From a virus, in the IMG/VR virus record IMGVR_UViG_3300032562_000016: a stretch of 64,000 nt of DNA; one strand, given 5' to 3'. Under the pieces are notes generated by a model that was given only the letters and a program-made list of their open reading frames with translations, was not told the DNA's origin and did not search any database. Numbering within the stretch: the stretch's first letter is position 1; each line of letters starts with the position of its first letter. Positions 6,466-45,200 of this stretch are shown in pieces. A program made the position numbers and the translations under genes.

Positions 6466-7167
6466 TTAGTCAAAGTTACCGTATGGGTAAGCTGAGCTTG
6501 TACCAATATTCATGTCATTTTGGTTGTAACGCATTGTTACTTCAATTTGACCTGATGTTGGAGTTGTTAAGCCAGTGTTAGTAATTTTAAGTGTTACAAC
6601 AACTTGACCAAACCATGCTGGATCTGTACCAACTTGTGGGTTTTGGAAGTCTTGTAATGTTGCACTAGCATAAGGCAATTGTGAGCCAACATAAGTTGCT
6701 GTTCCACGAGTAGCTGAAGTGATTGCAGCCATCGTAGCATATACACCAGTAGATGTAGCAAAGTTGTTAGAAACATAAGGCTGAATTGAATTGGCTGTTA
6801 CGCTTCCATCAGTTGGCAATGTACCAACGTCAACAATCACATCAGTGATATTGCAAGAATAAGGAACATAGAAAACTACGCCGCGATAAATAGTACCCGT
6901 AGCGTCAGCAGTTGGAGCAGAAGCTTTAGTAGGTCCGCTATTACTAAATACGCCAGCTTGTGGGGTATAAATAGTAGCAATACTATTTGGGATGTTGTTA
7001 GACGCAACAAAAATACCAGAGCCGCCACCGTAGTTAGCAGTATTAGGTGTTGTTACAGAAAAATCTAATAGAGCCGTTTGAACGAGGTCTGTATAACCTA
7101 CATCTCTAATAGGTCCAAAACGGTTTTGCCCAGAAAGAATTGGGCCGGAAAATGTGGAACGTGCCAT
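6466..7167 (-). CDS. virion structural protein
   Basis: 233 aa, S/T/N/G-rich. Confidence 0.45.
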   Translation of the reverse strand: MARSTFSGPILSGQNRFGPIRDVGYTDLVQTALLDFSVTTPNTANYGGGSGIFVASNNIPNSIATIYTPQAGVFSNSGPTKASAPTADATGTIYRGVVFYVPYSCNITDVIVDVGTLPTDGSVTANSIQPYVSNNFATSTGVYATMAAITSATRGTATYVGSQLPYASATLQDFQNPQVGTDPAWFGQVVVTLKITNTGLTTPTSGQIEVTMRYNQNDMNIGTSSAYPYGNFD

Positions 7168-17878: not shown

Positions 17879-18091
17879 ATGTTATTAAAAGCTAGATTCA
17901 CAATGACAGTAGAAAACTTAGATTTAATCGTTAATCAATATCAGAGTTTAAATGGAAAGGTTAAGTTCTTAACTCAACCTGCATTTAATAGCAATAGTGA
18001 AATCGTAGGCGAACAGAATGAAATTATGTTTTTTATTGGATTTGTTGCAGGACTAGGAGTACATGACTTAGAGCATGTTAATAAAGCTTGA
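17879..18091 (+). CDS. early protein (70 aa)
   Basis: First ORF of a densely packed plus-strand block of small genes; SD AAAGGAAAT before the ATG. Confidence 0.5.
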   Translation: MLLKARFTMTVENLDLIVNQYQSLNGKVKFLTQPAFNSNSEIVGEQNEIMFFIGFVAGLGVHDLEHVNKA

Positions 18092-18104
18092 TAGGTAACT
18101 TTAT

Positions 18105-18133
18105 AAGACTATTCCCGGCGAGTAGTCTTATGA
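18105..18133 (+). promoter_or_regulatory. intercistronic hairpin (ATAAGACTA...TAGTCTTAT, 9-bp stem)
   Basis: Perfect 9-bp inverted repeat seen in the sequence. No U-tract follows, so it is more likely an RNA processing or stability element than a terminator. Confidence 0.35.
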
Positions 18134-18169
18134 GGCATAAGCCTAAAACCCAAAAGGAACTAAAACCAA

Positions 18170-18357
18170 TGCTAACACTATCAACAGAAACTCCACAAAG
18201 CTACTTCACGCCTAAGCAGGCTCAGTTTATTTGTTACCAAAACAATGCGGATGAGTTAGACGGATGGACATATAAAGTAGAAGATGTAAATAACTCTAAG
18301 GGATTAGTAGTAATCCGTGTTTATGACGAAACCGGGCATCCTTTAGGATATTTTTAA
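18170..18357 (+). CDS. early protein (start moved to MLTLSTETPQ...)
   Basis: The track ORF 18088-18357 begins inside the upstream hairpin. The internal ATG at 18170 has an SD (AAAAGGAAC). Confidence 0.45.
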
Positions 18358-18361
18358 TTTA

Positions 18362-18411
18362 GGTTAACTGATGAGACTTTAATAGTCGAAACCGCTCCGG
18401 CGGTCTTAACC
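18362..18411 (+). ncRNA. type-I hammerhead ribozyme; predicted self-cleavage after C18405 (GUC)
   Basis: GGUUAA(stem I)-CUGAUGA-GACU/UUAAU/AGUC(stem II)-GAA-ACCGC/UCCG/GCGGU(stem III)-C-UUAACC(stem I). Every conserved core nucleotide is present, including the G10.1-C11.1 and A15.1-U16.1 pairs. Confidence 0.8.
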
Positions 18412-18431
18412 AAATAAAAGGAAATAAACCA

Positions 18432-18752
18432 ATGAAAGATCATTTATATATTGGCTCAACGCCAACAGATGAGGATTGCGCTCAGGTAGGCTCAGAGAAT
18501 TATGCGAACCGTGCTCGCGCAGAATGTAGACTTTTTGCGATACAGATACTTAAACACTATCCCGAGCCAGAAAAAGGATACTTATCAATAAAGGCTAATT
18601 CGCACGACTTCGGCACTTATTATGAAGTGGTTGCAGTTTATGACGATGAAGATGAGGACTCGACCAATTGGGCATATGACGTAGAAGCGGACGCGCTCAA
18701 CGTTCTATCTAATTGGGATGAAGAACTAAACCCTGCAACTGTTCCCGCCTAA
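18432..18752 (+). CDS. early protein (106 aa, acidic)
   Basis: ORF track; SD AAAAGGAAAT. Confidence 0.5.
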   Translation: MKDHLYIGSTPTDEDCAQVGSENYANRARAECRLFAIQILKHYPEPEKGYLSIKANSHDFGTYYEVVAVYDDEDEDSTNWAYDVEADALNVLSNWDEELNPATVPA

Positions 18753-18803
18753 GGTCTACTGATGAGGCCTAATTGGCCGAAACCCCTTCCCGGGGTATAG
18801 ATC
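18753..18803 (+). ncRNA. type-I hammerhead ribozyme; predicted cleavage after A18797 (GUA)
   Basis: GGUCUA-CUGAUGA-GGCC/UAAUU/GGCC-GAA-ACCCC/UUCCC/GGGGU-A-UAGAUC. All core nucleotides conserved; stem I has one G-U pair. Confidence 0.8.
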
Positions 18804-18824
18804 AACACTAAAGGACTATTAAAA

Positions 18825-19058
18825 ATGTATATTCCAAAAAGAGCTTATAAAGAAATAAACCGGCGACTAGAAGAAGGGCAGACGTACATAGATGCCATTA
18901 AGTACACCGCCTATTCGCACGGACTCGAACCCGTAGAGCTTCGCAAAGCATACGAAACGAGAAGCCACAGACTAGAAGTATTGGACAATTTATCCGTGGC
19001 AATTGGCATGATATTGGTCTTATCTATTCCCGTATCCGCCTTTTTATTTAGGGGTTAA
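18825..19058 (+). CDS. early protein with C-terminal TM segment
   Basis: 77 aa; C-terminal hydrophobic helix AIGMILVLSIPVSAFLF. Confidence 0.45.
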   Translation: MYIPKRAYKEINRRLEEGQTYIDAIKYTAYSHGLEPVELRKAYETRSHRLEVLDNLSVAIGMILVLSIPVSAFLFRG

Positions 19059-19060
19059 TT

Positions 19061-19336
19061 ATGATCGCATACATTAATTCACACGCACAACGAGAAAACG
19101 GAATAAAGGATAGCTTCTTAACTATTTCCGCGCCAGTAAAAAATGAGCCCTTACCGTGGCAACTTTTAGGGCTTCAATTTACCGGCTCGGGTTATGGCTC
19201 GCGCATCCCTACCCAGTACAAGGTGAAATACTTTGGAAAGTGGAGAAGAGTTTATTGCCGCATTTATTCCAATATTGGGACTTTATACATTGGCAAATTA
19301 TCGGATAACTTAATTATCAATATTAATGAGGGATAA
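19061..19336 (+). CDS. early protein
   Basis: 91 aa. Confidence 0.45.
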   Translation: MIAYINSHAQRENGIKDSFLTISAPVKNEPLPWQLLGLQFTGSGYGSRIPTQYKVKYFGKWRRVYCRIYSNIGTLYIGKLSDNLIININEG

Positions 19337-19339
19337 ATT

Positions 19340-19594
19340 ATGCACTGTTTAATTTTTGACCGCTCGGGCGATTTGCTTGCTAACTTTTTGCTAGATGATA
19401 ACGATCCATTAGATTGTGACTATTACGCGGAAAGGTACGGGAACTCGCACGGCGTAGAACTTGAGGGAGAGACACCCGGCGCAATGATACCGGACGGAAC
19501 AGAAGATTTGAGCGTAGTTATCTTAGAAAACCCTGGTAACCGGGTTGTAGTATGGAATTCTCACAATTACATGATTAAACAAGAGGAGTATTAA
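19340..19594 (+). CDS. early protein
   Basis: 84 aa, acidic. Confidence 0.45.
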   Translation: MHCLIFDRSGDLLANFLLDDNDPLDCDYYAERYGNSHGVELEGETPGAMIPDGTEDLSVVILENPGNRVVVWNSHNYMIKQEEY

Positions 19595-19596
19595 AA

Positions 19597-19899
19597 ATGA
19601 AGACTTATAAATTTTACGAGGATAGCGGGCACGGTTGGCTAAAGGTTACATTTAATGAACTGCTAGCCCTAGGTATCGCCGATCAAATTAGCCACTACTC
19701 ATACATTAAACCCAGTAAGGACGGCCAAACGCTTAATTGTTACTTAGAGGAAGATTGTGATTATTCAGTATTTGAGCGAGCAATGCAATCCCGAGGCATG
19801 CAATGGAAGGTTAAATCCTACCGCTCCGAGCGCTCCGCAATTCGTAATTATGACAGTTATTCTCGCGTAATCAAAACCATATCAACTCAAGGAGCATAA
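19597..19899 (+). CDS. early protein
   Basis: 100 aa. Confidence 0.45.
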   Translation: MKTYKFYEDSGHGWLKVTFNELLALGIADQISHYSYIKPSKDGQTLNCYLEEDCDYSVFERAMQSRGMQWKVKSYRSERSAIRNYDSYSRVIKTISTQGA

Positions 19900-19902
19900 A
19901 CC

Positions 19903-20349
19903 ATGAAAAACCAAATTATTAACGCGCTTTACACCTTCGCCAACAAACGACCAGGGCTAGAACCCCGCGACTATATTAGAAGTTGGGACGATAGCGAAGG
20001 CCGGGCAACATACCGCGCAGAATCCAGGAATATAACCAAAGACCTAAACCATGCCCGCGCACTACTTCGCCGGCTCGAACTCTCAGGAATCACCGCCGAG
20101 GAAATAATCGAGGCATCAAAAGAGGCATTCTCCGGGCGTTTAAGTATTTCAGTAACAAATGACGGGATTGTTAAAGTGTCCTATTGTGTTGGGCAATACT
20201 TCCCTACTGAGTACAGAAAGGCAGTTGCTAGCGTATGCGCTCGCGCATTATGGAGCTACTGGCGCGAAGATTCAAAAACCGCCGATAGTATTAGACAACT
20301 CGCCCGCCGTGAATTTCCCCGTGCTATCGCTCGCGCTTACTTTAATTAA
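19903..20349 (+). CDS. early protein
   Basis: 148 aa, largest gene of the early block. Confidence 0.45.
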   Translation: MKNQIINALYTFANKRPGLEPRDYIRSWDDSEGRATYRAESRNITKDLNHARALLRRLELSGITAEEIIEASKEAFSGRLSISVTNDGIVKVSYCVGQYFPTEYRKAVASVCARALWSYWREDSKTADSIRQLARREFPRAIARAYFN

Positions 20350-20358
20350 GGTCTAAAA

Positions 20359-20550
20359 ATGAACAATCCAATTATTGCTTATCATAAAAAATCAGAGCTT
20401 CGCGGTTGGTCTGAGGTATGCCGTGATTCTATATATTGGGAAGGTTGGCACGAATTCGACCGATCAATGATAGAAGAGCTTCTTAAATCAGGGGAAGAGG
20501 TAATAACCTGCGGTTGGAATATGTACCAAGTAATTAAGGAGGCCAAATAA
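20359..20550 (+). CDS. early protein
   Basis: 63 aa. Confidence 0.4.
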   Translation: MNNPIIAYHKKSELRGWSEVCRDSIYWEGWHEFDRSMIEELLKSGEEVITCGWNMYQVIKEAK

Positions 20551-21329
20551 TGTACAAAATAATTGAAAAGAATAACCCGCTCGCCGTGCACTGTATTTGT
20601 GACACCCTAGAACGCGCCGAGTACTGGATTAAACAAACCGCCCCGGAATATTGCTTAAAGGGTTATTTTATGGATAAGACCTTGACCCCGGAAAGCTTCA
20701 CAATTAAAAAGGGTTAAACAATGTACACCGTAACCTATAAAGACACAAACGGCGGACTGTTCGGCGATTCTATGGAAACGCGGACATTCTCTAACTACCA
20801 AAGTGCCCGAGTATTCGCCCGGGTAAAAAAGGGAACTATTACAAGGGTTAAACCATGAAAGAGATTATCGAAAACCTTTTAAGAATTCAAGAACTATTAA
20901 ACGATCCGGAAGCGGATGATTACTTCACCCATAACGAAATCGACAGACTACTAACCCAAACGCTAGAAAAACTAAAGGCTAACCAATGAGAAAAATTAAG
21001 ATTGAATTAACTATTGAAATAAAAGAACATGATTCCTACGGATGCCAAAGCAATGCAGACTGGGTTTATAACACTATTGAGGAGCAATTAGACCCCGGAG
21101 AATCAATAATTGATTACAAAATAACAGACGAAAAATCAGATATTACAGAAGAGGCTAATTAATGAAAACACTATTTCACGATCAACTACACGCGCACCGC
21201 ACCGCTCGCCGGGCTCAGAAAAACGAACCCGATCATAGATTTATTGTCGATCAAGTTATTTGGGGAACTAATCCGGCCTGGATTATCTACCGATTAGACT
21301 CCGCCGGGCGAATAATTGGCCGTCTCTAA
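20550..21329 (+). other. Run of five sub-60-aa, translationally coupled early ORFs: 20550-20717, 20721-20858, 20855-20989, 20986-21161 and 21162-21329.
   Basis: Manual translation. Each has an ATG preceded by an SD. Stops and starts overlap as TAATG, ATGA or TGATG, and there is no gap between consecutive ORFs. Confidence 0.4.
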
Positions 21330-21370
21330 AATTCACGCCTGAGTCAGGCTTACTAAAAAAGGAATTAACA

Positions 21371-21565
21371 ATGAAAAAATTTATAGTGTATATGGTTCGA
21401 GTTGAGCACATTATTTACCCCATAAATGTAGAGGCAGAAGATCAGGAGGAAGCGGAAGAACTGGCGCGCAAAAAATGGGATGACGGGGATTTTAATTCAA
21501 AAGGAGAGGTTGTATACGGAGAAGAATTTATAAACCAAGTAGACGAAATAATGGATGAAAAATGA
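21371..21565 (+). CDS. early protein
   Basis: 64 aa, acidic. Confidence 0.4.
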   Translation: MKKFIVYMVRVEHIIYPINVEAEDQEEAEELARKKWDDGDFNSKGEVVYGEEFINQVDEIMDEK

Positions 21566-21882
21566 AATACACAATAATTACAGGTAACCCAGTGGACGGA
21601 TTTAGGTCGATAGGTATATTTGATAGTAGCGAAGATGCAGTCGCGCACGGAGATATGCAGAGATTATTCCACGACTATTCAATTATGGAGATTGATGAAA
21701 TAGAAAAACACACGACTGTTACGCGCAATGAAATGATTCAGGCTTTGATTGATCGAACGCTAGAAAAATGGAATAGTAACGACCAAAAAACCGCGTTTTT
21801 ATCTAGTTTTCTCAGAAATGGGTATGCAGGATTAGAAAAATTAAGTGATGATGAATTGATCGAAAGGTATAACCAATTATGA
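21562..21882 (+). CDS. early protein
   Basis: 106 aa. Confidence 0.45.
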   Translation: MKYTIITGNPVDGFRSIGIFDSSEDAVAHGDMQRLFHDYSIMEIDEIEKHTTVTRNEMIQALIDRTLEKWNSNDQKTAFLSSFLRNGYAGLEKLSDDELIERYNQL

Positions 21883-22157
21883 ACGACTTACAACGCGCAA
21901 TACTTAAAAAAGTATTAGAAAAAGGATACACCCTAAACCCGATGGAATATTGCCCGGACGGACACTATACCGATTATGATGAGTGGGACTCGGTTAACCT
22001 GGGCGATGGATTTGAATTTGATATTAACTTTTATAGTGATGGACAATATTTTTATATTACCGCCTACGATTTAATTCAAACCGACTCAGGAATGATGACC
22101 AGAAACAATCAGAGTTTTTTCCATTTAATCAAAATGCCAATAGTGGAGGTAGTATGA
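21879..22157 (+). CDS. early protein
   Basis: 92 aa. Confidence 0.45.
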   Translation: MNDLQRAILKKVLEKGYTLNPMEYCPDGHYTDYDEWDSVNLGDGFEFDINFYSDGQYFYITAYDLIQTDSGMMTRNNQSFFHLIKMPIVEVV

Positions 22158-22303
22158 CAGTAGCAGAACTAATTCAAGAGCTTTTAAAAGTGGACGATAT
22201 AACCAAACAGGTATATACATTCAATGACCACGAACTACGCCCGGTAACAATGGTAGACGAACTATCAGACCGGGTAGATATAAACCTGGGAGACATATTA
22301 TGA
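22154..22303 (+). CDS. early small protein (49 aa, below cutoff)
   Basis: ATGA overlaps at both ends. Confidence 0.35.
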   Translation: MTVAELIQELLKVDDITKQVYTFNDHELRPVTMVDELSDRVDINLGDIL

Positions 22304-22506
22304 GGCTAACTAAAAGAGATATCATTGAAAATTCAATTATCTACGAATGGGAGTGGCTACAAGAACGCGCCCAGGATGACCCAAAGGTCTACGAGGATGC
22401 AATTAAGACTATGCTCCGTTACGGGTTTATTGGTTACGAAAAAATGGATAACGATTCCCTGATAAATAAAGCGATTGACACCGGACAACTAATGGAAGAT
22501 TTATAA
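22300..22506 (+). CDS. early protein
   Basis: 68 aa. Confidence 0.4.
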   Translation: MRLTKRDIIENSIIYEWEWLQERAQDDPKVYEDAIKTMLRYGFIGYEKMDNDSLINKAIDTGQLMEDL

Positions 22507-22527
22507 ATAAATCATACAATTATTCGC

Positions 22528-22725
22528 ATGATTAAAGCCCTTTTTACGATTGATCTAATTGAGGACGAGGACGGAAATGTTCTCGTTCGTTCTAACTATA
22601 CCGGCGAAGGCGAGGCAGTAGAGGAAATAGGACATGATATCCTACGTCAGCTACTCCTTGCCGAGTCTATTAGCAACGGAAATATAACCGTTCAATCCCT
22701 GCATTATTTAGCGCATATTCAATAA
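22528..22725 (+). CDS. early protein
   Basis: 65 aa; its 3' end overlaps the convergent primase-like gene. Confidence 0.4.
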   Translation: MIKALFTIDLIEDEDGNVLVRSNYTGEGEAVEEIGHDILRQLLLAESISNGNITVQSLHYLAHIQ

Positions 22726-29949: not shown

Positions 29950-30026
29950 TAATATATCCTCCTTAGATGTGATGGATTATAACACTACTAGGTGTGCTAA
30001 AGTGAAATTATTTATAATAAAACTAC

Positions 30027-30353
30027 CTAGAACGATAGTAGTATTTTTATAGATTCTTTTTCAGTTTGATCTATTGTGTGTTCACAATCTTCCCAAGGGG
30101 GAGTAGTACAGTTGCATAACGGCTTATATACGCCAGTAGTAAAAACAACTTTAGATTTCGTATTGTTTGTATTAATAGATAATTTTCTTTTGCCAAAAGT
30201 TAAATGAGATAACTCGGCAGTATTATTCTGATACCTTTTCGCCCACCCAGGCCGTAGCGGATAAGGTATACCAAATGCTCTGGCTGATGTAGCAGTAATA
30301 GATATATTATCTGGATAGTACTTACTTAAGAAATCTTTAAGTGTAATTATCAT
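30027..30353 (-). CDS. hypothetical protein
   Basis: 108 aa, Cys-containing. Confidence 0.45.
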   Translation of the reverse strand: MIITLKDFLSKYYPDNISITATSARAFGIPYPLRPGWAKRYQNNTAELSHLTFGKRKLSINTNNTKSKVVFTTGVYKPLCNCTTPPWEDCEHTIDQTEKESIKILLSF

Positions 30354-31514
30354 TTTTAGTGAGCCAGAGTGAGTGAAGTGATATTTAGAGGAAAGCTATG
30401 CCTATAGGAGACCTAAGCCTCCTATATAGCATTACCTGAGCCGTCGGTCGTTCGTTTCAACCCGTATCAGGGGAGCTGTAAAGTTGTTCGCCAGCTCCTA
30501 TCTTCCAACGTTATCTGCTCAACATGCAGCGTTCCCTTACCACACCGTCGGAAGGCATCCCTATCGTTGCCACCGTGTACCGCCTCATTGAAGAGCGGAT
30601 TGGTATAGCTATTTTCGAAAACACTCTATCCCTATGCGTCCGGATGGGGATGCTTCTGTCCGGAATACAACACAAGCCAGAACCGTCGTGACTCTGCTCC
30701 TCAGGGACTACGCTTTCTAAACCTTTTCAGGCTACCGATACCATGACGTATGACGGCTACTCGCTTCCTCTACCCTCGGTATGAAATCTTTTCCCGATAG
30801 ACTCTTATGTCGGGTAACGGCAGAAAGCAAAAAACCCTTACTGAAAGATACGAGCTTTAGGCTTGGTTGCCGCATACAAGTCTGCCATACCAGAATCTTG
30901 TAGCTTTGACGAAGCCCGCTCCTTCAGTAAGGGTTCGGGACTGTTTCGTTATATGGAACTACAACGGGTTACCAAGCCGTTGATGGGGGGAGTATATCAA
31001 ATAATTTCAGGTTATGTCAAACCCAAGTAAAAATATATGTAGTCTTTTACACGGGGAAATAGTTGTTGGTGCTCACATAAAGCAGTGTTTTGTTACCAAT
31101 TCGACTCTAATGGATCATAAAAAAATGATTATTAGATTACTGGCGCTAACCCAGTAAACACCAACAAGAATGAAGACTGCTACCCGCTGTTCACAGAGCA
31201 GGAAACCTGCATTTCTCGCAATCCTCATACTTGTTAGCTGTTGGCAAAATAAGACTTTCTTAATGCATCATAACAATGCTCCGCCTCGTATATACCAACA
31301 AGAATGAGGACTACCTTTATGTCTTTATCCCGTGGCTGGCCTTGTCACAGCCCTTTGGACTCGGGTTAAAGCTGGGCGTCCCCCAGCAATCCTCATGCTT
31401 GTAAGTACTCCCCCAGCAGTTGTAGCCGCCGAGGGAGAAGGACAACATTTGTCCGAACAAGTATGAAGACTCGGAGGCTTTTATTTCAGTTAGCCACGAT
31501 GCCTGAACACACCG
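30354..31514. ncRNA. Large ORF-free region (about 1.16 kb) with higher GC and many hairpins; candidate large structured ncRNA(s) and/or origin or other cis-acting locus. Strand unknown.
   Basis: No ORF of 60 aa or more in six frames over 1161 bp, in an otherwise roughly 95% coding genome. Hairpins visible: CTATAGGAG/CTCCTATAG (around 30395-30430), GGAGCTG/CAGCTCC, TCCGGA...TCCGGA, CCCTTACTGAA...TTCAGTAAGGG (11-bp stem enclosing about 80 nt), plus three 13-bp-stem hairpin units at 31163-31540. Confidence 0.45.
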
Positions 31515-31540
31515 TTATTGTGAATCTTCATACTTGTTAG
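31163..31540. repeat. Array of three long hairpin units. 5' arms AACAAG(A/T)ATGA(A/G)GACT are at 31163-31178, 31297-31312 and 31456-31471. 3' arms (C/G)AATC(C/T)TCAT(A/G)CTTGT(T/A)AG are at 31219-31237, 31387-31405 and 31523-31540.
   Basis: Read directly. Unit 3 arms form a perfect 13-bp helix. Units 1 and 2 have 1-2 mismatches with partly compensatory changes. Loops are 40-75 nt. The array is bracketed by roughly 90-nt direct repeats (GCTCRCATAAAGCAGYGTT...GGCGCTAACCCRGTA) at about 31066-31160 and 31546-31625. Confidence 0.7.
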
Positions 31541-31748
31541 TTTGGGACGGCTCGCATAAAGCAGCGTTATTTTGTGCCTCATTACTCCAAGGAGATACGG
31601 CGCTAACCCGTATTACCGCCCCAAGGTTTTTATTATAAGCAGAAATATTAATCCGTTTCTTGTTGGGGCATTTTTTACACTTAATCCCCTGGCAAACACC
31701 TAGTTGTTCACACCTTGTAATCTTCATAAAAAAATGGGGATGCCGCAC
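31515..31748 (-). CDS. doubtful ORF (GTG start, Cys-rich, overlaps repeat R2 and a hairpin arm)
   Basis: The 77-aa track ORF starts with GTG and spans the conserved non-coding repeats. Probably not a real gene. Confidence 0.2.
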   Translation of the reverse strand: MRHPHFFMKITRCEQLGVCQGIKCKKCPNKKRINISAYNKNLGAVIRVSAVSPWSNEAQNNAALCEPSQTNKYEDSQ

Positions 31749-31794
31749 GACACCCCCAAAAGTTCAACAGGAACTACCAATGAAAGACTATATT

Positions 31795-32082
31795 CTACTC
31801 GCATTTTTTAAGCATTGCTAAAGCTTCTTCAACAGAATTTACTATCGCCAGTAGCCCTCCCGTCCATTCATTGAAAAACTTCTGTTCCGCGTCCGTCAGC
31901 TTTCTAGCACTAGGAACTTTTTTACCATCTTTAACTTCTAGCAAAAGGGTATACCCCATATACCCCACCAAAAGATCCGGTACTCCGTCACCCATAGTGA
32001 TTATTCTTACAGTAGCACCCGCCTTACGGAGGGCGTCCACTATGTCGTTTTGATTGGCGTCAATTCTATTTGCATATCTCAT
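31795..32082 (-). CDS. VRR-NUC domain nuclease
   Basis: 95 aa; GVPDLLVGYMGYTLLLEVKDG...L...Q..F..W.GG...IV.S.EEA matches the VRR-NUC (PD-(D/E)XK-fold) signature D...E.K. Confidence 0.65.
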   Translation of the reverse strand: MRYANRIDANQNDIVDALRKAGATVRIITMGDGVPDLLVGYMGYTLLLEVKDGKKVPSARKLTDAEQKFFNEWTGGLLAIVNSVEEALAMLKKCE

Positions 32083-32162
32083 ATAAATATTTTACAACAT
32101 ATTGCAAACGGCTGGATATATGTGGTACATTACACTCCCTTGCAATACATAAGGAACTAACA

Positions 32163-32435
32163 ATGAAACATATCCACGCAGACTTAATACATGCTTGGGC
32201 AGATGGTGCTCAGATTCAACGGAAAAGAAATAATGAAGATTGGGATGATGCTCCTTATCCAATTTGGGATGAAAATACTGAATACAGAATAAAACCAGAA
32301 TCTAAATCAGATTATGTTAGATATCTTGAAATGCCTATGTTTTGGGGATATGTCGAAAGAAGACCAGAATCAAATATGAAAGTTGTATTTGATGGCGAAA
32401 CAGGCGATCTTAAATCAGCGGAGGTGCTTAAATGA
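32163..32435 (+). CDS. hypothetical protein (start moved to MKHIHADL...)
   Basis: The track ORF starts at 32070. The ATG at 32163 has an SD (AAGGAACT). Confidence 0.4.
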   Translation: MKHIHADLIHAWADGAQIQRKRNNEDWDDAPYPIWDENTEYRIKPESKSDYVRYLEMPMFWGYVERRPESNMKVVFDGETGDLKSAEVLK

Positions 32436-33307
32436 AATTAACAAATAAATTTGGCTTGCCAGAAACCATAGTAAACGTCTTAAAGCGCCCCACCTATTCC
32501 AAAGGTAAGGCTCATATATCTGCAACTGAGCTCATAAACTCACCAAAGATCGTACAGCTTAAAAGAATGTATTGGGACGAGCTGGAGGAGGATGCAAGCT
32601 CTATGGTCTGGTCTTTGTTTGGATCTGCTGTTCATAACATCCTAGAGCACGGTAAAGCGGATAACCATATCGTAGAAGAAAGAGTACACGTTACCCATGA
32701 TGGATGGAACATATCCGGAGCAGTAGATCTTCAGGAAGTATACGAAGACGGAATAGTTATTAACGACTATAAAACTACTACCGCCTGGGCAGTTCAAAAC
32801 GACAAGCCGGAATGGGAAGAACAGCTAAACATCTATGCCTGGTTATTACAGAAAGCCAAGAATAAACCCGTCAAAAAGCTTCGTATTGTGGCCATAGTGC
32901 GCGATTGGAGCTCAAGGGAGGCCAGTACCAAGGAAAGCTATCCACAAGCCCCCATCGTGATCCTAGACCAGACCTTATGGCCTTTTGAGCGGGCAGAGTT
33001 ATTTATAGACGAGAAGTTAAAGTTACACGGCGAAGCTTATTTTGAATCTGAGACAGACGGAGATCTACCGGACTGTACGCCAGAGGAGATGTGGGAGAAG
33101 CCAAGTAAATATGCTGTTATGAAAGATGGTGGATTAAGAGCAAAAAGCGTACACGACACTTTAGAAGAAGCTCAAAAAGCACTGCCGGAGAAGGGGTATT
33201 CCATTGAATGCAGGCCCGGAGAAAGAACAAGATGTAAATCTTATTGTCAAGTATCAAAATTTTGTAATCAATATAAAGAATACATTAAAAATAATAGCGA
33301 TCTTTAA
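32432..33307 (+). CDS. PD-(D/E)XK nuclease with C-terminal Cys cluster (Cas4/RecB-like exonuclease)
   Basis: VDLQEV...IVINDYKTTT (D..E.K core) and the C-terminal C...CKSYCQVSKFC cysteine cluster typical of Cas4/AddB-type nucleases. Neighbours an ERF annealing protein. Confidence 0.5.
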   Translation: MKLTNKFGLPETIVNVLKRPTYSKGKAHISATELINSPKIVQLKRMYWDELEEDASSMVWSLFGSAVHNILEHGKADNHIVEERVHVTHDGWNISGAVDLQEVYEDGIVINDYKTTTAWAVQNDKPEWEEQLNIYAWLLQKAKNKPVKKLRIVAIVRDWSSREASTKESYPQAPIVILDQTLWPFERAELFIDEKLKLHGEAYFESETDGDLPDCTPEEMWEKPSKYAVMKDGGLRAKSVHDTLEEAQKALPEKGYSIECRPGERTRCKSYCQVSKFCNQYKEYIKNNSDL

Positions 33308-36156: not shown

Positions 36157-36575
36157 TGGACACCATTCAATATGAGGCGGTAAAGGTAGCATTAAAGCAG
36201 GATAAAACCGGCTTTATGCTGACCTTAAACATACATCCGGACGAGATACCAAATGACTTAATTCGTGACTTCGTGGGGGCGCGGTATCAGGTTGTTATGG
36301 TACGTCTTGACGGGAATAATCAACCAATGGATCGCAAGGAGAACTTTAGAGATCCGGTTAAGTTAGCCGTTTTGCTTTGCAAAGATCCCGATTTTTCCAA
36401 GTTTCTTTACGAGACTTCTCAAAGCTTAGAAAAGGAAATGACGGAGGAGGACTTAACCAATTGGTTAAAGCTTGAACTCAATATCACGTCCAGAGCAGAT
36501 CTAAAGAACGATGCAGAGGCTACTCGGCATTTATACACAATTAATCAGGAATTTAAAGCATGGAAACAAATCTAA
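36153..36575 (+). CDS. hypothetical protein
   Basis: 140 aa. Confidence 0.4.
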   Translation: MMDTIQYEAVKVALKQDKTGFMLTLNIHPDEIPNDLIRDFVGARYQVVMVRLDGNNQPMDRKENFRDPVKLAVLLCKDPDFSKFLYETSQSLEKEMTEEDLTNWLKLELNITSRADLKNDAEATRHLYTINQEFKAWKQI

Positions 36576-36865
36576 TCCCGTACTCGGTTTACCTGAGCTC
36601 GGAAATACATAAAAAATTAAAGGAGGCGGCGGAAGATAGAAAAGCTTCTGGAATAGTTAGAGATGCTATTAACGCCTATTTTGAAAATACGGACGCGATG
36701 AACACAGGATACAACAGTGCAATAGGAGATGTAATTGACATTATCGCCAAGGACAAACTGGTATCTGGGCTAACTATCAATAGCAAAGAAGTCGATATGC
36801 AGTTGATCAATAAAATCTTAAAACTTAAAAGGAAAGAAAATGGCAAGAAAAAAAGAGGGGCTTGA
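36560..36865 (+). CDS. ribbon-helix-helix (CopG/Arc-like) DNA-binding protein
   Basis: YSVYLSSEIHKKLKEAAEDRKASGIVRDAINAYF is a beta-strand plus two helices (RHH signature). Confidence 0.55.
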   Translation: METNLIPYSVYLSSEIHKKLKEAAEDRKASGIVRDAINAYFENTDAMNTGYNSAIGDVIDIIAKDKLVSGLTINSKEVDMQLINKILKLKRKENGKKKRGA

Positions 36866-37043: not shown

Positions 37044-37404
37044 TGAAGAATTAATGCAGTTGATGACTGATATGGATTTGCATGAAGGTGGTATGGAAAA
37101 CTGGGTTCTTGATAATGCTTGGTTGCGGGTGGCTAATGCAGTTGAAGAAAAAGAACGTGAGCGTATAAAAAAACAGAACGCACCCGAGATTGAAAAGACT
37201 AATGCTTACATAAAACAACTAGAGCTAGAAAAGATGGAGTCTGACATTTTGCACAATGAGCACCTAAAACTGTTGGGCGAAATTAAAGCTATGACAGAAG
37301 CATCGAGATCGGCTGAACGTGAGGTGATTCTTGATTTGGTTGACGGTTACGCAAAAAACAACACAGACCTAGTTGAGGCAATTCAAGCAAGGGGACAAGA
37401 ATGA
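37030..37404 (+). CDS. coiled-coil protein ending ...EAIQARGQE*
   Basis: 124 aa; the 3' end is the conserved junction GCAAGGGGACAAGAATGA. Confidence 0.45.
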   Translation: MGMTNEELMQLMTDMDLHEGGMENWVLDNAWLRVANAVEEKERERIKKQNAPEIEKTNAYIKQLELEKMESDILHNEHLKLLGEIKAMTEASRSAEREVILDLVDGYAKNNTDLVEAIQARGQE

Positions 37405-37562
37405 AGATTAGGGTATGGCGCAGACAGATGACCAGAAGGGACACAGGTTTTGTAAGATCATTGGATAGGTTGATGGATCTAATGGCATATCACTCGAATA
37501 AACTTTCAAAGACGTTACAAGATGTTTATACAAATTCTTTACGAGCAAGGGGACAAGAATGA
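37401..37562 (+). CDS. small protein (53 aa, below cutoff) ending ...SLRARGQE*
   Basis: Manual translation MKIRVWRRQMTRRDTGFVRSLDRLMDLMAYHSNKLSKTLQDVYTNSLRARGQE. Both ends use the conserved ATGA junction. Confidence 0.4.
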   Translation: MKIRVWRRQMTRRDTGFVRSLDRLMDLMAYHSNKLSKTLQDVYTNSLRARGQE

Positions 37563-37789
37563 ATAAAATAATTGCACTAAGAGAAGGAATGGCAACTGTT
37601 GGGGATAACGCTTTAGAGTACATGGATGAATGGAAATCGGAAATGATTACTAGCTCCAAAGTTGTGATTATTTTTAGCGATGAGGCAGGTGCTTATAACA
37701 CCTATTCTGTTAACTGCAATATGGCTGAAGCGATTGGTTATTCGACACTTGCGCAAGAGATGTTGCTTAATCAGATAAGACCACAATGA
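37559..37789 (+). CDS. hypothetical small protein
   Basis: 76 aa; starts in the conserved junction. Confidence 0.4.
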   Translation: MNKIIALREGMATVGDNALEYMDEWKSEMITSSKVVIIFSDEAGAYNTYSVNCNMAEAIGYSTLAQEMLLNQIRPQ

Positions 37790-38091
37790 ATAAAGAAGAA
37801 ATAATTGAAGTTGCTATACAGGCGGGAATTAAGCATAGGACAGATGAATTTTATTCAGAATTTTGTGATGGCGTTTATTTCGATGACCTTATAACCTTTG
37901 CCAAACTAATAGCAGAAAAAGAACGTGCGTCAAATCATGCATACATTTATGAATTGGAACGTGATCTAGAGGTGGCGCAAGACAAGATTAACGATTGTCT
38001 TGTATGTCTTAACTTTAACCCTTTAGAGGCGGCGCAAGATAAGATTAAAGGTTGTCTTGGAATTCTAAACTATAACCCAAGGGGTAAATAA
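37786..38091 (+). CDS. small protein, paralog of 38424-38642, with internal tandem duplication
   Basis: Shares TFAKLIAEKERE with the downstream paralog. Internal duplication AQDKINDCLVCLNFNP/AQDKIKGCLGILNYNP is a roughly 57-nt DNA tandem repeat at about 37960-38075. Confidence 0.45.
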   Translation: MNKEEIIEVAIQAGIKHRTDEFYSEFCDGVYFDDLITFAKLIAEKERASNHAYIYELERDLEVAQDKINDCLVCLNFNPLEAAQDKIKGCLGILNYNPRGK

Positions 38092-38273
38092 TGGGTGATA
38101 TGGCTGAAGTGTGGAAAGATTGGAAAGAATACAAAAAGGAACGTAAAGATCGTTTAGGGATGCCATGCCCTGATTGCACCATTCGCTTACCAAAGGCTCA
38201 GCCAAAGATTCTCATGCCAAATCAGAAGTGTTGGTGTGGTTATGTTGATAAAAGAAAGAGGGGACAAGAATGA
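38091..38273 (+). CDS. Cys-containing small protein ending ...KRKRGQE*
   Basis: 60 aa; CPDC...C. The 3' end is the conserved junction variant AGAGGGGACAAGAATGA. Confidence 0.4.
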   Translation: MGDMAEVWKDWKEYKKERKDRLGMPCPDCTIRLPKAQPKILMPNQKCWCGYVDKRKRGQE

Positions 38274-38431
38274 ATTTTAATCAAGGTAAATTAGCTGAAG
38301 GTCTTGTTGATGAAGTATTACAAATAATTCACAATTATGACGATACCCTTTACATGGCAACCGTAATTGGATGTTTGGAGTTGGTGAAGCAACAGTTAAT
38401 TAATGATGCTATGGAGGAAGATAATGACTAA
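38270..38431 (+). CDS. small protein (53 aa, below cutoff)
   Basis: Manual translation MNFNQGKLAEGLVDEVLQIIHNYDD...; starts in the conserved junction. Confidence 0.35.
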   Translation: MNFNQGKLAEGLVDEVLQIIHNYDDTLYMATVIGCLELVKQQLINDAMEEDND

Positions 38432-38642
38432 AGAAGAAGAAATAATTGAAATTGCTAGACATGCAGACCGAGAATGGGATTGCGACAGAGATATGTTTGA
38501 ATGGCTTGAAACTTTTGCCAAACTAATAGCAGAAAAAGAACGTGAGGAATGTGCAAAGGTGTGTGATGCGTATGACAACGGTAGATATTCAAATGCCGCA
38601 GATTTGTGCGCTGAAGCAATCAGAGCAAGGGGACAAGAATGA
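38424..38642 (+). CDS. small protein ending ...EAIRARGQE* (paralog of 37786-38091; MTKEE start)
   Basis: The track ORF starts at 38403; the ATG at 38424 has GGAGG upstream. The 3' end is the conserved junction. Confidence 0.45.
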   Translation: MTKEEEIIEIARHADREWDCDRDMFEWLETFAKLIAEKEREECAKVCDAYDNGRYSNAADLCAEAIRARGQE

Positions 38643-42200: not shown

Positions 42201-45200
42201 TGATTCAGTTGTTCTAACCAGTCTATCTAATGCTGTTTCAAAGTTCTTAGCAATGCCTAGCACCTGGCGAATCAAACCAATAATGTGAGAAAAGACTGTT
42301 TTATTTCCTACCTTAATATCAGATAAGAATTTCTGCATTCCTTTATCCGTCATACCCCAGGAGATAAGCTCATCAGGATCTGACAAAGCATTGTTCATGC
42401 GCTTGTAGTAATTCTTTAAAACATCAGGTAAATCAGCGCCTTTATTCTTTGCTATTTCCTCGTTAAATTTATTAACAACAGTCTCATGCAAGCTTCTAAT
42501 CTCTTTTACCAATGGATCTGTACTGGCCAAAAATCTCATCTGACCGCGAGTAGCAGCGTGGAGCAGTTCATGTAGCACCACCGTATAGTCCATACCAGAA
42601 GGGAAGCCATTTTGATTGGCAAATACTGGAGCACCATTTAGCTTAATGGAAATAAGCGTAGGCTGTCCTTGGGCGCCCCAAACAAAACTTGTTAATCCCT
42701 TAGCAGACCTTAGATCCCCAGTCCTGGAGTTACCGCTTGCGACTTCAAAGTTATATACTACTCCGGCCTTTTGCATAGACTGGAGGCGGGTTAAAACTTT
42801 ATTGGCTACAAACCTAGCAAAGCTATTTGGCGCGTTGGCAATAGCCCATTGAGCAGCCTGAATGAATGTTTTACCAGTAAGCTCTTTCTGAATCCTAGCT
42901 TCTTCTGGATTATTTGCCGGCTTATTGCTTACATCTTTTGATTGTAAAGTCTCAGGTTTATTGCCAAGATAATCCTTTATAGCTGAAGTCAAAAACTGAT
43001 GATACATATCCTCAGCTTCAGCTTGAGTTTCTCCTCTGGTAAAGGCTTCCTCATGTATTCTTCTTGTATCAATACCTATTTGCTTGGCAAAGCTTATAAG
43101 GTTATCTAGTAACTCATTTTCTAATTCGTCTTCATATATGGGCTTACCATTTAAATGGGCAATGAGTAGACTTTTTTGATAGTCTTTATACTCCTCATCT
43201 CCTTTTTGATTTAATGATTCCTCTATATTTTCTGGTTTTTGTCTATCGTTTTTAATTGCTTGTCTAGCATCTTCGTGATCACTAGGATCTAAAATGTATC
43301 CAGACTCATGCAAAGCTGTAGCGGCTTTATCCATCCGCATCCCTTTTTCGGGATTATTTTGCCCTGCGTATAACCATCCAGCACCAACTTTAATATTAGG
43401 CACATCCTCATGCCCCATCTCAGTTTTCTCATCTGGATGTAGTCCACCTTGCGATGCTATAAAACTCCTAGCACCCATCTTTTCGCCGGAAGCAGTGACT
43501 TTACCTAGGTTGCGATTATTCTTTTTCTCAGAATCTAACTGAGCTTGTGTCTTTGGAGTAAGAACAAATTCATTGCCAATCGGCAATATTCGCATTAATG
43601 GTTGCAATTTCTTCGCTTGAATAGCATCTTCTTTATGCTTAAAGCGAGTTGCTCCCTCTGACAATAATCCAGTAATGGGATTATTTAAATCGTCATATCC
43701 AACAATGCCTATGTTTTCAGGATGCTCAGATGATTTAATTTCTGGCTTAGGCTTTGTAACCGTTTCTTTTGGCATGGTCCCGTAAACTTGGTCCCATTGC
43801 TCATTCTCCATCATCTTTTGTCTATCTTCCCACTTTTGCATCCACCTATCTTTTGATGAAGCAGTCTGTATAGCTTTCTTTTTCTCATCAGGAGACATGG
43901 CATCCCAAGCTTGTTGAGCTGTAGGAGGAGGCGGTTGCATAGGAGCATTTTCAACAACAGGAGCTCCAATGGCTTGTAAAGCTCTATTGCGATCTAATTT
44001 GTCCTTAATAGGATCATCGCTAAACTTTGTTTTATTAATCTGAGCTATAGCCTTTTTTTGCCTGGTATCTTGCTCTACTTGTTGCGCTGCAACATTAGTT
44101 CTTGCTTGTCCCAATAATTGATTATTTATATTTTGCTGGCCAAGTAATTGGCTCATTGGTGTATTTGTCAATGATTGACCAAGCTGAGGAGCAACCGGCG
44201 CTTCTGGAGCGGCTTGTTCGGGTTGCATTGCAGCCACTTGTTGCGGTTGTAAAGCAGCTAATTCTTTGTTTTGAATTAACTGATTCATCATTGGATCAGT
44301 GTGATATTGGGTTTGTTTAACTTGTTTTATTTGTTCTTGTCTTTGAGCTTCTGCTTCAGCGGCGGCCTGAGCTTGTTGTTGACGAGCAGCATCTAAAAAT
44401 CCCATTTGATTTGCAGGACCGGCAAACCCAGGAAGATTACGGAACCTATCGGATTGATCCCCTTCAAACATAGGAGCATAAGAACTAGGCTGTTCTTCTT
44501 GTTCTGGCTCTTGAATTGCTTGCGCTTGTTTAATAGGCGCAGCATTCATTCTTGTATTAACACCGCCTACGCCGCCAGGAACTATGCCCATAGCAAACGC
44601 GCCACCAGCAGTATTAATATACTCATTGATAGCGTTCTTATCTGCTAACGGTAACCCAGCACCATAACGCTCAGCAGCTTGTTGGACGAGCTCAGGAGGA
44701 ACTTCTTTAGCACCAGTGGCTAACATTCCTTTACCAATATCCAAAAATAAATTGCGGGTAGATTTAGATCCTATTCCTTCAAGTCCACCTAGACCAATCT
44801 TTTCAGCAGCAAAGTCGGCAAGAGAATGAACCGCAACAGCAGGAGCTAACTTAGAAAAGTCAATCTTATCTGTATCGTATCCGGCTTCCTGGGCAGCTCT
44901 ACTTGTTGGTTCACCAATACCATGAAATAAAGCTTGGCTGGCTACTCCAGCATTCTGTCCAAAAGTAGATGCTCCTGAACTAGCGTACTTAGCTAATTCT
45001 TCTTTTGCCAAAGTTTGCTTAGCTTTATCTTCTACAAAGGTCTGGGCCGCAATCTTAGCTGCATCTTTAGTAGCTCCATTCTTAAGCTCATTCTCAAGAA
45101 CTTCCTTTGCTGCATTCTTAATCCCTTGCTTAACCAATGACTTGTTTAATATAGGAGCCATTGCGCCTTCTAGCGTACCTGCTCCAGGGGCTATAGCTGT

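Follow-up and report, generated by a model that had tools for sequence, protein, structure and literature searches.

The phage C4 and CI RNAs are excised by RNase P, and conserved gene-boundary linkers are known in mosaic phage genomes, among them the promoter early stem-loop (PeSL) elements of T4 and the boundary sequences of lambdoid phages. Y RNAs carry, close to the 5' end of their stem, the Ro/Rsr-binding motif GNCGAA(N)G (PMC4201824), and arrays of the tandem interspaced guide RNA (TIGR) type have 8-12-nt repeats and 9-nt spacers (9-12 nt in the criterion), with a Nop-domain Tas protein encoded adjacent to them (PMC12045711). Here we analyzed three hairpin units in a 64,000-nt stretch of viral DNA (IMG/VR record IMGVR_UViG_3300032562_000016), the whole of which is called the window and to which all coordinates refer. 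A previous interpretation of the letters (the sequence-only reading) had connected these hairpins, through a 10-mer, with four gene junctions about six kilobases away in the window. Our preferred interpretation, which we hold with reserve and judge to be just on the probable side, is that the hairpins are minus-strand RNA modules of a processed array of stable RNAs and that the junction motif is independent of them.

Hairpin units, their fold and their relatives

The arm sequences and positions of the three units were as previously claimed:

31160-31238, minus strand: hairpin unit 1, with a closing helix of about 20 bp (minus-strand reading CUAACAAGUAUGAGGAUUGC...GCAGUCUUCAUUCUUGUUGG) and a 41-nt interior made of two small hairpins
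31292-31408, minus strand: hairpin unit 2, with a 75-nt interior
31454-31540, minus strand: hairpin unit 3, with a 51-nt interior and a closing helix that is paired throughout

On the plus strand the units begin with AACAAG(A/T)ATGA(A/G)GACT and end with AATC(C/T)TCAT(A/G)CTTGT. These arms are complementary to each other, and the interiors of the three units are mutually unrelated. The minus strand folded with z-scores of -4.3, -3.9 and -6.9 for units 1, 2 and 3, respectively, compared with -2.3 to -2.7 for the plus strand, and the covariance-model score of unit 1 was 33.8 bits on the minus strand versus 10 bits on the plus strand. The whole RNA stretch was far more structured than shuffled sequence (z = -7.6). 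When the closing helices of 24 units were aligned, 93.8% of the cells were paired and both sides had changed in 8 of the 18 pairs; none of 500 shuffles reached the observed values, and only 37-46% of the cells were paired when the partner strand was slid. In the helix core of 25 units, 61 G.U pairs were counted on reading in the minus sense, as opposed to only 3 on reading in the plus sense. This asymmetry, together with the co-orientation of the units with neighbouring genes and transfer RNAs (tRNAs), indicates that the folded strand is the minus strand, as RNA. The base of the helix is conserved as CUAACA/UGUUGG and its top as GAUUG/CAGUC, the latter including a U.G wobble. Most units have a pyrimidine-pyrimidine mismatch at helix position 7, and in the commonest type an A.G follows at position 8.

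Short MKT/MRT open reading frames (ORFs) had been noted on the plus strand of the units. They do exist, although they are not conserved: their frames and lengths differ between units, and they are missing in relatives with CCAACACGGCTGGGGACT arms on the plus strand. Coding by the plus strand of the units, including the apparent lipobox (LVSC) of unit 1, was rejected since the frames differ and the arms of most relatives contain no ATG on that strand.

Relatives were collected by fetching 80 related loci via the exonuclease and further contigs via a search for the 5'-arm pattern; the counts of units, interiors and loci in the family are those among the matches listed and are thus lower bounds. 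In the exonuclease-linked relatives the hairpins were located in the same place, with arms that differ yet stay complementary, such as AACACGCAUGGGGAUU/AGUCCCCAGCCGUGUU (the commonest pair in the family), AAGAAGUGUAGAGAUU/AGUCUCUACUCUUGUU and AACACACAUGAGCAUU/AGUGCUCAGCUGUGUU. By the 5'-arm pattern, at least 119 viral contigs carry units. At least 144 distinct units were obtained (150 sequences minus the opposite-strand readings of near-symmetric units), with 1-5 units per genome and with interiors of 26-157 nt that fall into about 97 sequence families. The interior family of unit 1 recurs in locus L085, and the interior of unit 2 is nearly identical to that of the unit at 6482-6588 in locus L001, where the spacer beside the unit differs. 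One and the same interior was found with more than one arm type: in family 0 the arms are of the AACAAG or the AACACG type, and cargo conservation and covariation under differing arms were also observed for families 2 and 6. Compensatory changes were present inside the interiors. The interiors are therefore selected structures and not filler.

A scan of bacterial genome collections (596 Gb) gave 72 matches, only three of which were real units, the rest being chance 18-mer matches. Complete units were found in Polynucleobacter sp. UK-Kesae-W10, near tRNA-Gly and prophage-like genes, and in a Burkholderiales metagenome-assembled genome; the family is thus present in a cultured bacterial genome too, and this group is likely to include the hosts. 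In the Polynucleobacter strain (L254, 500-2000) about 1.5 kb without credible ORFs extends from tRNA-Gly to a prophage repressor-like gene and contains one complete unit. With Rfam 15, nothing in the window reached the gathering score, and a search of 30300-32150 at E-values up to 10 returned one 18-bit microRNA match at chance level. Among 16 related loci Rfam detected genuine tRNAs only, and no interior matched any family. A literature search found no description of such arrays, and no DNA similarity to 30000-33000 was detected among 50,697 deposited phages. The family is widespread and unannotated: well over a hundred contigs of freshwater phages carry it, and neither the units nor the E2 element described below are in Rfam.

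Conserved inverted termini around variable centres recall miniature inverted-repeat transposable elements (MITEs) and integron attC sites, and the units could be taken as DNA-level elements, namely MITEs, attC-like folded sites, single-strand origins or packaging signals, whose arms would be protein-binding inverted repeats. Cargo order varies among close relatives, many arrays lie between nuclease and terminase genes, where cos or pac sites are expected, and a fold of minus-strand single-stranded DNA is formally conceivable. However, the 61:3 wobble asymmetry points to folding of one strand and not to duplex binding sites, and every unit has the orientation of the tRNAs and genes beside it. 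The attC core RYYYAAC/GTTRRRY is not matched by the arms, and no integrase or transposase match was found with Pfam and PHROGs in about 50 ORFs (most of the large ones). The interiors are wholly different between copies, unlike those of MITEs, and the array in the window is 15 kb away from the terminase gene. A DNA-level element is thus quite improbable in our judgement.

The RNA island and its proposed processing

The hairpin units are interspersed with three further elements:

31541-31626, minus strand: E2 copy 1, cloverleaf-like, on the 5' side of the array in the RNA sense; loop GGGUUAGCGCC, motif CGCUGCUUUAUGCGAGC, stem UUGGGGCGG/CCGUCCCAA
31240-31299, minus strand: 60-nt element between units 2 and 1, with a 7-bp acceptor-like stem GUUGGUA/UGCCAAC
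31063-31167, minus strand: E2 copy 2, cloverleaf-like, on the 3' side of the array; its stem UUGUUGGUG.../...CACCAACAA overlaps the base of unit 1

In the RNA sense the array begins with E2 (31626-31541), unit 3, a spacer with two hairpins and unit 2, and continues with the acceptor-closed 60-nt element (31299-31240), unit 1 and the second E2 (31167-31063). The end of a unit's 3' arm (GUUGGUG) also takes part, as the 5' strand, in the 7-8-bp stem by which the next element is closed; its exact complement was found 25-213 nt downstream in 59 of 142 units versus 2 in the upstream control. The elements closed by such acceptor stems are 57-156 nt long, and two of them scored as tRNA above threshold, with 43 bits in L195 and 40 bits in L109. 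These tRNA-like genes (L195 1068-1180, minus strand; L109 653-756, plus strand) have the usual acceptor, D and T arms, and their acceptor stem, (U)GUUGGUG/CACCAAC(A), is common to other array elements; about 31-33 nt are inserted in the anticodon region. ARAGORN with default settings called no gene in L195, and L109 was outside that scan.

Many of the other acceptor-closed elements belong to the conserved E2 family, which was represented by 51 distinct instances in the window and in loci L002-L191; 11 of its 15 predicted pairs covaried in an alignment of 24 sequences. Its hallmarks are the two invariant loops, GGGUUAGCGCC and CNCUGCUUUAUGNGAGC, and strongly covarying stems. E2 lies beside the hairpin units or between them, and its two loops could form a 4-bp kissing contact, AGCG/UGCU. 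Genuine tRNA genes adjoin units on the same strand in L097, L107, L111 and L017, and in L111 the 3' end of the tRNA abuts the arm. A further RNA in L107 (5427-5494), the int-alpA RNA (Rfam RF02996, 44.9 bits), is unrelated to the array. Neighbouring gene clusters tallied over 118 loci comprised nucleases, terminase and small proteins. The recurrent upstream neighbours were homologues of a 95-aa gene (28 loci), HNH (18 loci) and RuvC-like genes (11 loci), and the recurrent downstream neighbour was the terminase large subunit (36 loci), which was on the same strand as the units in 35 of the 36. Nucleases upstream and terminase downstream are the usual setting of phage tRNA clusters.

For the array we infer that it is co-transcribed, that RNase III and RNase P cut the transcript and that the products are stable. 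The whole array would be transcribed as a single polycistronic precursor in which the helices of about 20 bp serve as modules of double-strand processing and protection, cut in an RNase III-like manner as in ribosomal RNA (rRNA) and T7 transcripts. In geometry they resemble an RNase III substrate, a helix of about two turns that may have an internal loop at its centre: 18-20 positions are paired, and most units are mismatched at position 7 (and 8). The acceptor-like stems (GUUGGUG/CACCAAC) would be cut by tRNA-processing enzymes, and both cleavages together would release a set of small stable RNAs. The variable structured interior is the cargo, and the modules alternate with tRNA-like bodies or E2.

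With regard to the cargos, complementarity to the 6 kb on each side of 144 units showed no excess over same-sense and shuffled controls, and antisense targets within the window were limited to 10-13-mers at chance level. Since no antisense signal was found, roles as protein decoys or other host-directed RNAs are favoured for the cargos. A more far-reaching proposal is that two repeats, which alternate and are complementary to each other (in their most frequent version CACCAACAAC-UAACACGCAUGGGGAUUG and CAGUCCCCAGCCGUGUUGGUG), fold every segment of the transcript into a closed stem and are thereby a universal scaffold for the display and processing of a rapidly changing repertoire of small structured RNAs, as well as short-homology points of DNA exchange, and that the modules inhibit host defences. 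We regard this as unlikely. If it were true, phages would swap RNA modules as integrons swap genes, with about 100 families including tRNA mimics, and the modules would be decoys or inhibitors of host defences directed at tRNA or RNA. Phage tRNA clusters are known to counter tRNA-targeting defences; a viral tRNA, for one, neutralises PARIS (PMC11464382). A large and diverse set of small RNAs linked to tRNAs is an obvious place to seek RNA-based counter-defence, and it might also offer a natural scaffold for stable small-RNA expression.

The surroundings of the island (31063-31626, about 0.6 kb) include a further small RNA candidate, t1, just downstream in the RNA sense. The features concerned are the following:

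31795-32082, minus strand: 95-aa nuclease-like ORF, matching PHROG endonuclease and Holliday-junction-resolvase families
31735-31758, minus strand: intrinsic terminator 3' of the 95-aa nuclease-like ORF, upstream of the RNA array in the RNA sense
30991-31020, minus strand: sigma-70-like promoter (TTGACA-18-TATACT, 11 of 12 matches, TG extension) that would drive t1
30826-30984, minus strand: t1, small RNA candidate; a long-stem hairpin (30832-30936) followed by a U-run, z-score -4.5

The t1 candidate is about 155 nt long with a 25-bp stem, and compensatory stem variants occur in many relatives, including L004, L029 and L076. More non-coding DNA with conserved hairpins was observed at 30400-30830. 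One of these hairpins, CCUAUAGGAG...CUCCUAUA, lies at about 30400-30430, and the other, CCGAUAGAC...GUCGGG, which L001 has too, at about 30795-30815.

In front of the array, TATAAT is conserved 6-7 nt before E2 in the window and in L001, but the -35 element is poor. In several relatives (L005, L007, L010, L029, L076, L089 and L180 among them) a promoter-like sequence, a short hairpin and a strong intrinsic terminator are found about 10-110 nt before the first unit in the RNA sense. Terminators just upstream, together with the co-orientation of the units with downstream operons, are what would be seen if the hairpins were a cis-acting leader, that is, attenuator, antiterminator or mRNA-stabilising structures for the downstream operon from which no RNAs are released. 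Phage early operons do use RNA-based antitermination, as at the put sites of HK022. However, about 97 unrelated interiors in 1-5 copies per genome, among the matches listed, are ill-suited to a single cis function, and the units are interleaved with tRNA genes and tRNA-like elements. In the window, the promoter-driven t1 candidate and about 0.5 kb of further non-coding DNA precede the next gene. The leader explanation appears doubtful to us, and a processed array remains the reading that we prefer.

The window belongs to a tailed phage, with genes for portal and capsid proteins, the large terminase subunit, an SU10-type adaptor and tail fibres. Further products are an internal protein containing a transglycosylase domain and a polyvalent protein of 2125 aa. 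Judged from the terminase, the cultured phages nearest to it are podoviruses of about 60 kb from marine and freshwater bacteria (about 50-57% identity). The hairpins are located within about 1.4 kb of non-coding DNA that separates two divergent early modules. The leftward module (minus strand) runs from the 95-aa nuclease-like gene through the non-coding stretch and small genes to a ParB-like gene, a helicase and a primase. The rightward module (plus strand) encodes an exonuclease, an HNH endonuclease, an SPFH protein and an Erf protein and includes the small genes bearing the junction motif. The island sits in the leftward early region of a podovirus of roughly 60 kb whose host is probably Polynucleobacter or another member of the Burkholderiales. 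Homologues of the 95-aa ORF were located directly upstream of hairpin arrays and on the same strand in the 28 loci counted above.

Two further observations were made in this region. A 17-nt repeat, AGGAACTA(C/A)CAATGAAA, occurs at 31769-31785 and 32152-32168; the first rightward gene has its ribosome-binding site and start in the second copy, and the first copy, at the 3' end of the opposed 95-aa ORF, opens a 13-codon ORF only. At 17879-22725, a 5-kb plus-strand block of about 20 small ORFs (55-148 aa) lies between minus-strand modules.

The junction motif and the shared 10-mer

The 18-mer GCAAGGGGACAAGAATGA was exact at 37387, 37545 and 38625 and had three mismatches at 38256, whereas 0.06 occurrences were expected. 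The claim that it marks stop-start overlaps was borne out, as all four copies form ATGA overlaps between small plus-strand ORFs: those ending at 37404, 37562, 38273 and 38642 overlap the next starts at 37401, 37559, 38270 and 38639, respectively.

37387-37404, plus strand: junction copy 1, ...AIQARGQE* / ATG; 13 nt (ACAAGAATGAAGA) in common with the arm of unit 1
37545-37562, plus strand: junction copy 2, ...SLRARGQE* / ATG
38256-38273, plus strand: junction copy 3, ...DKRKRGQE* / ATG; 5' part degenerate
38625-38642, plus strand: junction copy 4, ...CAEAIRARGQE* / ATG

The motif contains a Shine-Dalgarno-like GGGGA six bases upstream of the ATG. Relatives keep it, as GCAAGGGGACAAG(A/C)ATGA, at many junctions and in a fixed position relative to the start codons: all 35 distinct instances were ATGA overlaps. 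In relatives it is mostly on the strand of the leftward operon, and the copies in the window are on the rightward operon. The proteins on both sides were unrelated in 545 of 595 instance pairs. In L021 and L026 the upstream gene is identical and the downstream genes differ directly after the ATGA.

In the part of ...AIRARGQ(E/A)* that precedes the invariant 18-mer, the Ile and Arg codons show synonymous variation, and part of the motif is therefore a C-terminal tail maintained at the protein level. The AIRARGQ(E/A) tail characterizes small proteins that show the pattern EREACAKVC...C..AIRARG, and the product of 38403-38642 clearly belongs to them. Small proteins of the form ...FAKLIAEKERE(E/A)CAKVC...C..AIRARG are very common near the arrays (37786-38091, 38403-38642 and 28 related loci) and matched no Pfam or PHROG family. 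The invariant GCAAGGGGA provides the Shine-Dalgarno sequence for the next gene, and the same final 15-18 nt in three apparently unrelated proteins of the window argues for spread at the nucleotide level. The junction motif lies at mosaic boundaries and fits a conserved gene-boundary linker that also supplies a Shine-Dalgarno sequence, and it is consistent with recombination at this point. It offers a concrete example of a coding linker at mosaic gene boundaries.

The sequence-only reading had counted the 10-mer ACAAGAATGA at about ten sites. Enrichment was confirmed, with 7 exact copies in the window versus 0.18 expected (two in hairpin arms, four at junctions and one at 44546 on the minus strand); a count near ten is reached only with one-mismatch copies, which bring the sites to 14 versus 6.8 expected. 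This enrichment overstates the case because the copies make up two families, each repeated for its own reasons. The single coincidence to be explained is one 10-mer common to two consensus sequences (13 nt at the 37395 copy), for which a rough chance estimate is about 3e-4 for this motif pair, uncorrected for the number of comparable motif pairs. The 10-mer was confined to AACAAG-type arms, in 10 of 120 loci with units, and across the 120 loci its presence in the arms was uncoupled from the type of junction motif. Thirteen loci had the ACAAGCATGA junction and two had the ACAAGAATGA junction with arms lacking the 10-mer; in eight others the arms contained the 10-mer, while an exact junction motif was missing from the fetched stretch. 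Given locus lengths of only 1-17 kb, these absences are soft evidence. ACAAGAATGA is absent from the commonest arm, AACACGCAUGGGGAUU, which agrees with the junction core in 8 of 10 positions; between this arm and the AACAAG type, three positions of the 5' arm differ. A few substitutions can therefore produce the exact match, and, with the strand evidence added, the simplest reading is that the shared 10-mer would be a coincidence, a property of one arm variant that would have no function.

Two explanations had nevertheless been offered in which the match is functional. According to the first, ACAAGAAUGA would be an operator or translation-initiation element of an RNA-binding regulator, with the hairpins acting as decoys or as sequestered plus-strand starts. 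The exact match between arms and junctions, the GGGGA before the ATG, and the fact that the 3' arm of the minus-strand hairpin RNA is antisense to the junction would suit it. However, the G.U pattern places the fold on the minus strand, most arms in the family (including the commonest pair, AACACGCAUGGGGAUU/AGUCCCCAGCCGUGUU) lack the motif, and some have no AUG at all. Furthermore, junction motif and arm 10-mer occur apart in both directions (13 loci and, within the fetched stretch, 8 loci), and the mini-ORFs vary in frame and length. About 15 nt of minus-strand unit 1 RNA could pair with the start region at 37391-37410; such pairing is unlikely to be functional because the arm must leave a 20-bp helix and the match is not conserved. 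The ribbon-helix-helix (RHH) protein put forward as a candidate (36560-36865) matched no Pfam or PHROG family. We give this explanation hardly any credence.

The second explanation holds that the shared core is a recombination linker for small protein genes, the hairpins being donor or empty cassettes. The position of the junctions at mosaic boundaries, with the switch of the downstream gene in L021 and L026 exactly there, agrees with it, and so do the reshuffling of interiors against spacers between the window and L001 and the Erf annealing protein and exonuclease encoded by the phage. The hairpins do not agree with it: their arms are inverted repeats whose pairing is selected in one strand, their cargos are structured RNAs and not gene remnants, many phages of the family have no junction motif nearby, and units adjoin tRNAs and terminase genes. 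The linker idea can therefore hold for the junctions alone, for which it is partly supported, and in the form that includes the hairpins we consider it very unlikely. A motif joining hairpins and junctions, if true, would imply a new regulator or shuffling mechanism; such a link was unsupported.

Several points weigh against our preferred combination of a processed RNA array with an independent junction motif. The RNA ends and the processing are predictions from the sequence. No strong promoter was found for the array itself, and because of the terminators before arrays, expression may need read-through or a weak internal promoter. The conserved bases within the helix (A-U pairs and the U.G wobble) suggest a specific recognition factor; generic double-strand cleavage could do without these bases. 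The unit counts rest on pattern searches because the arms-only covariance model, which finds unit 1, coped poorly with long cargos and misses the units that carry them. Finally, a chance estimate of about 3e-4 is low enough to leave room for a lineage-specific relation between type-A arms and junctions.

Comparison with known systems

Each of the closest known systems was compared in turn with the units. Transfer RNA and transfer-messenger RNA were rejected as identities, as none was found in the window by ARAGORN and Rfam RF00005 and the units have no D, anticodon or T arms. The hairpin promoters of N4-like virion RNA polymerases were also rejected: the 2125-aa protein is a polyvalent LPD38 protein and not a polymerase, and the hairpins are far larger. 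A MITE was rejected on the unrelated interiors (about 97 families in at least 144 units) and the lack of flanking duplications in the sequences inspected.

Integron attC sites and cassettes, TIGR arrays and clustered regularly interspaced short palindromic repeat (CRISPR) arrays likewise have conserved repeats around highly variable segments, and attC sites carry their signal on one folded strand. Unlike in these systems, the variable segments here are structured RNAs, and neither the scanned ORFs nor the recurrent neighbour clusters included an integrase, a Cas protein or a Nop-domain (Tas) protein. An attC identity was rejected since the termini read [CT]ACCAAC ... GTTAGCT/GTTAGTT (xxYYAAC ... 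GTTGGTR on the other strand) and no integrase was present in the scanned ORFs. TIGR-Tas was rejected since the repeats are about 20 nt and the variable parts 26-157 nt long and no Nop-domain neighbour was seen.

For the junctions, the gene-boundary linkers of T4 (PeSL) and lambdoid phages are likewise short conserved sequences between many unrelated small genes at which gene content switches. Unlike these linkers, the junction motif lies within coding sequence (the C-terminal ...RARGQ(E/A)) and carries a ribosome-binding site in place of a promoter stem-loop; the early promoter and stem-loop of PeSL were not seen in the 18-mer, which has neither a stem-loop nor promoter hexamers.

Among the RNAs, Y RNAs (bound by Ro60/Rsr; YrlA) likewise measure 70-130 nt, have a long conserved terminal stem and a variable module, occur as tandem paralogues and show a tRNA-like association. 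Unlike Y RNAs, the units have no GNCGAA or GGUCCGA stem motif (their arms have the form (C)UAACA(A/C)G(Y)AUG(R)GGAUUG), no conserved tRNA-like interior and no Rfam match. No TROVE-domain (Ro60/Rsr) gene, which for a Y RNA is expected within about 4 kb on the same strand, was matched among the recurrent neighbours in 118 loci or among those neighbouring ORFs that were scanned. The C4 RNAs of P1 and P7 and the CI RNA of P4 likewise have paired 5' and 3' ends, are excised from a precursor and bear internal hairpins on a common stem. They differ in that the closing helix of the units is much longer, no Rfam C4 match appeared even at E-values up to 10, and the antisense relation of C4 was not seen, cargo complementarity in the 6 kb on each side being no greater than in controls.

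The RNase III stems of rrn operons and T7 early mRNAs likewise place a helix of about 20 bp, often with a mismatch near the middle, around a functional RNA, and they are likewise repeated along a polycistronic transcript that also carries tRNAs. Unlike those stems, the helix of the units has sequence-conserved positions and a fixed U.G wobble, the enclosed RNAs (26-157 nt) are extremely diverse, and cleavage is predicted here. The units thus fail membership in tRNA, the Rfam families, Y RNA, C4, TIGR, attC and MITE. By analogy, the hairpins would in function be closest to the processing stems around stable RNAs, and their architecture recalls Y RNAs and RNase P-processed phage small RNAs. The known kind to which they may be assigned is that of phage tRNA-linked stable RNAs with processing stems, and what would be new is the existence of such hairpin-scaffold arrays with hypervariable interiors.

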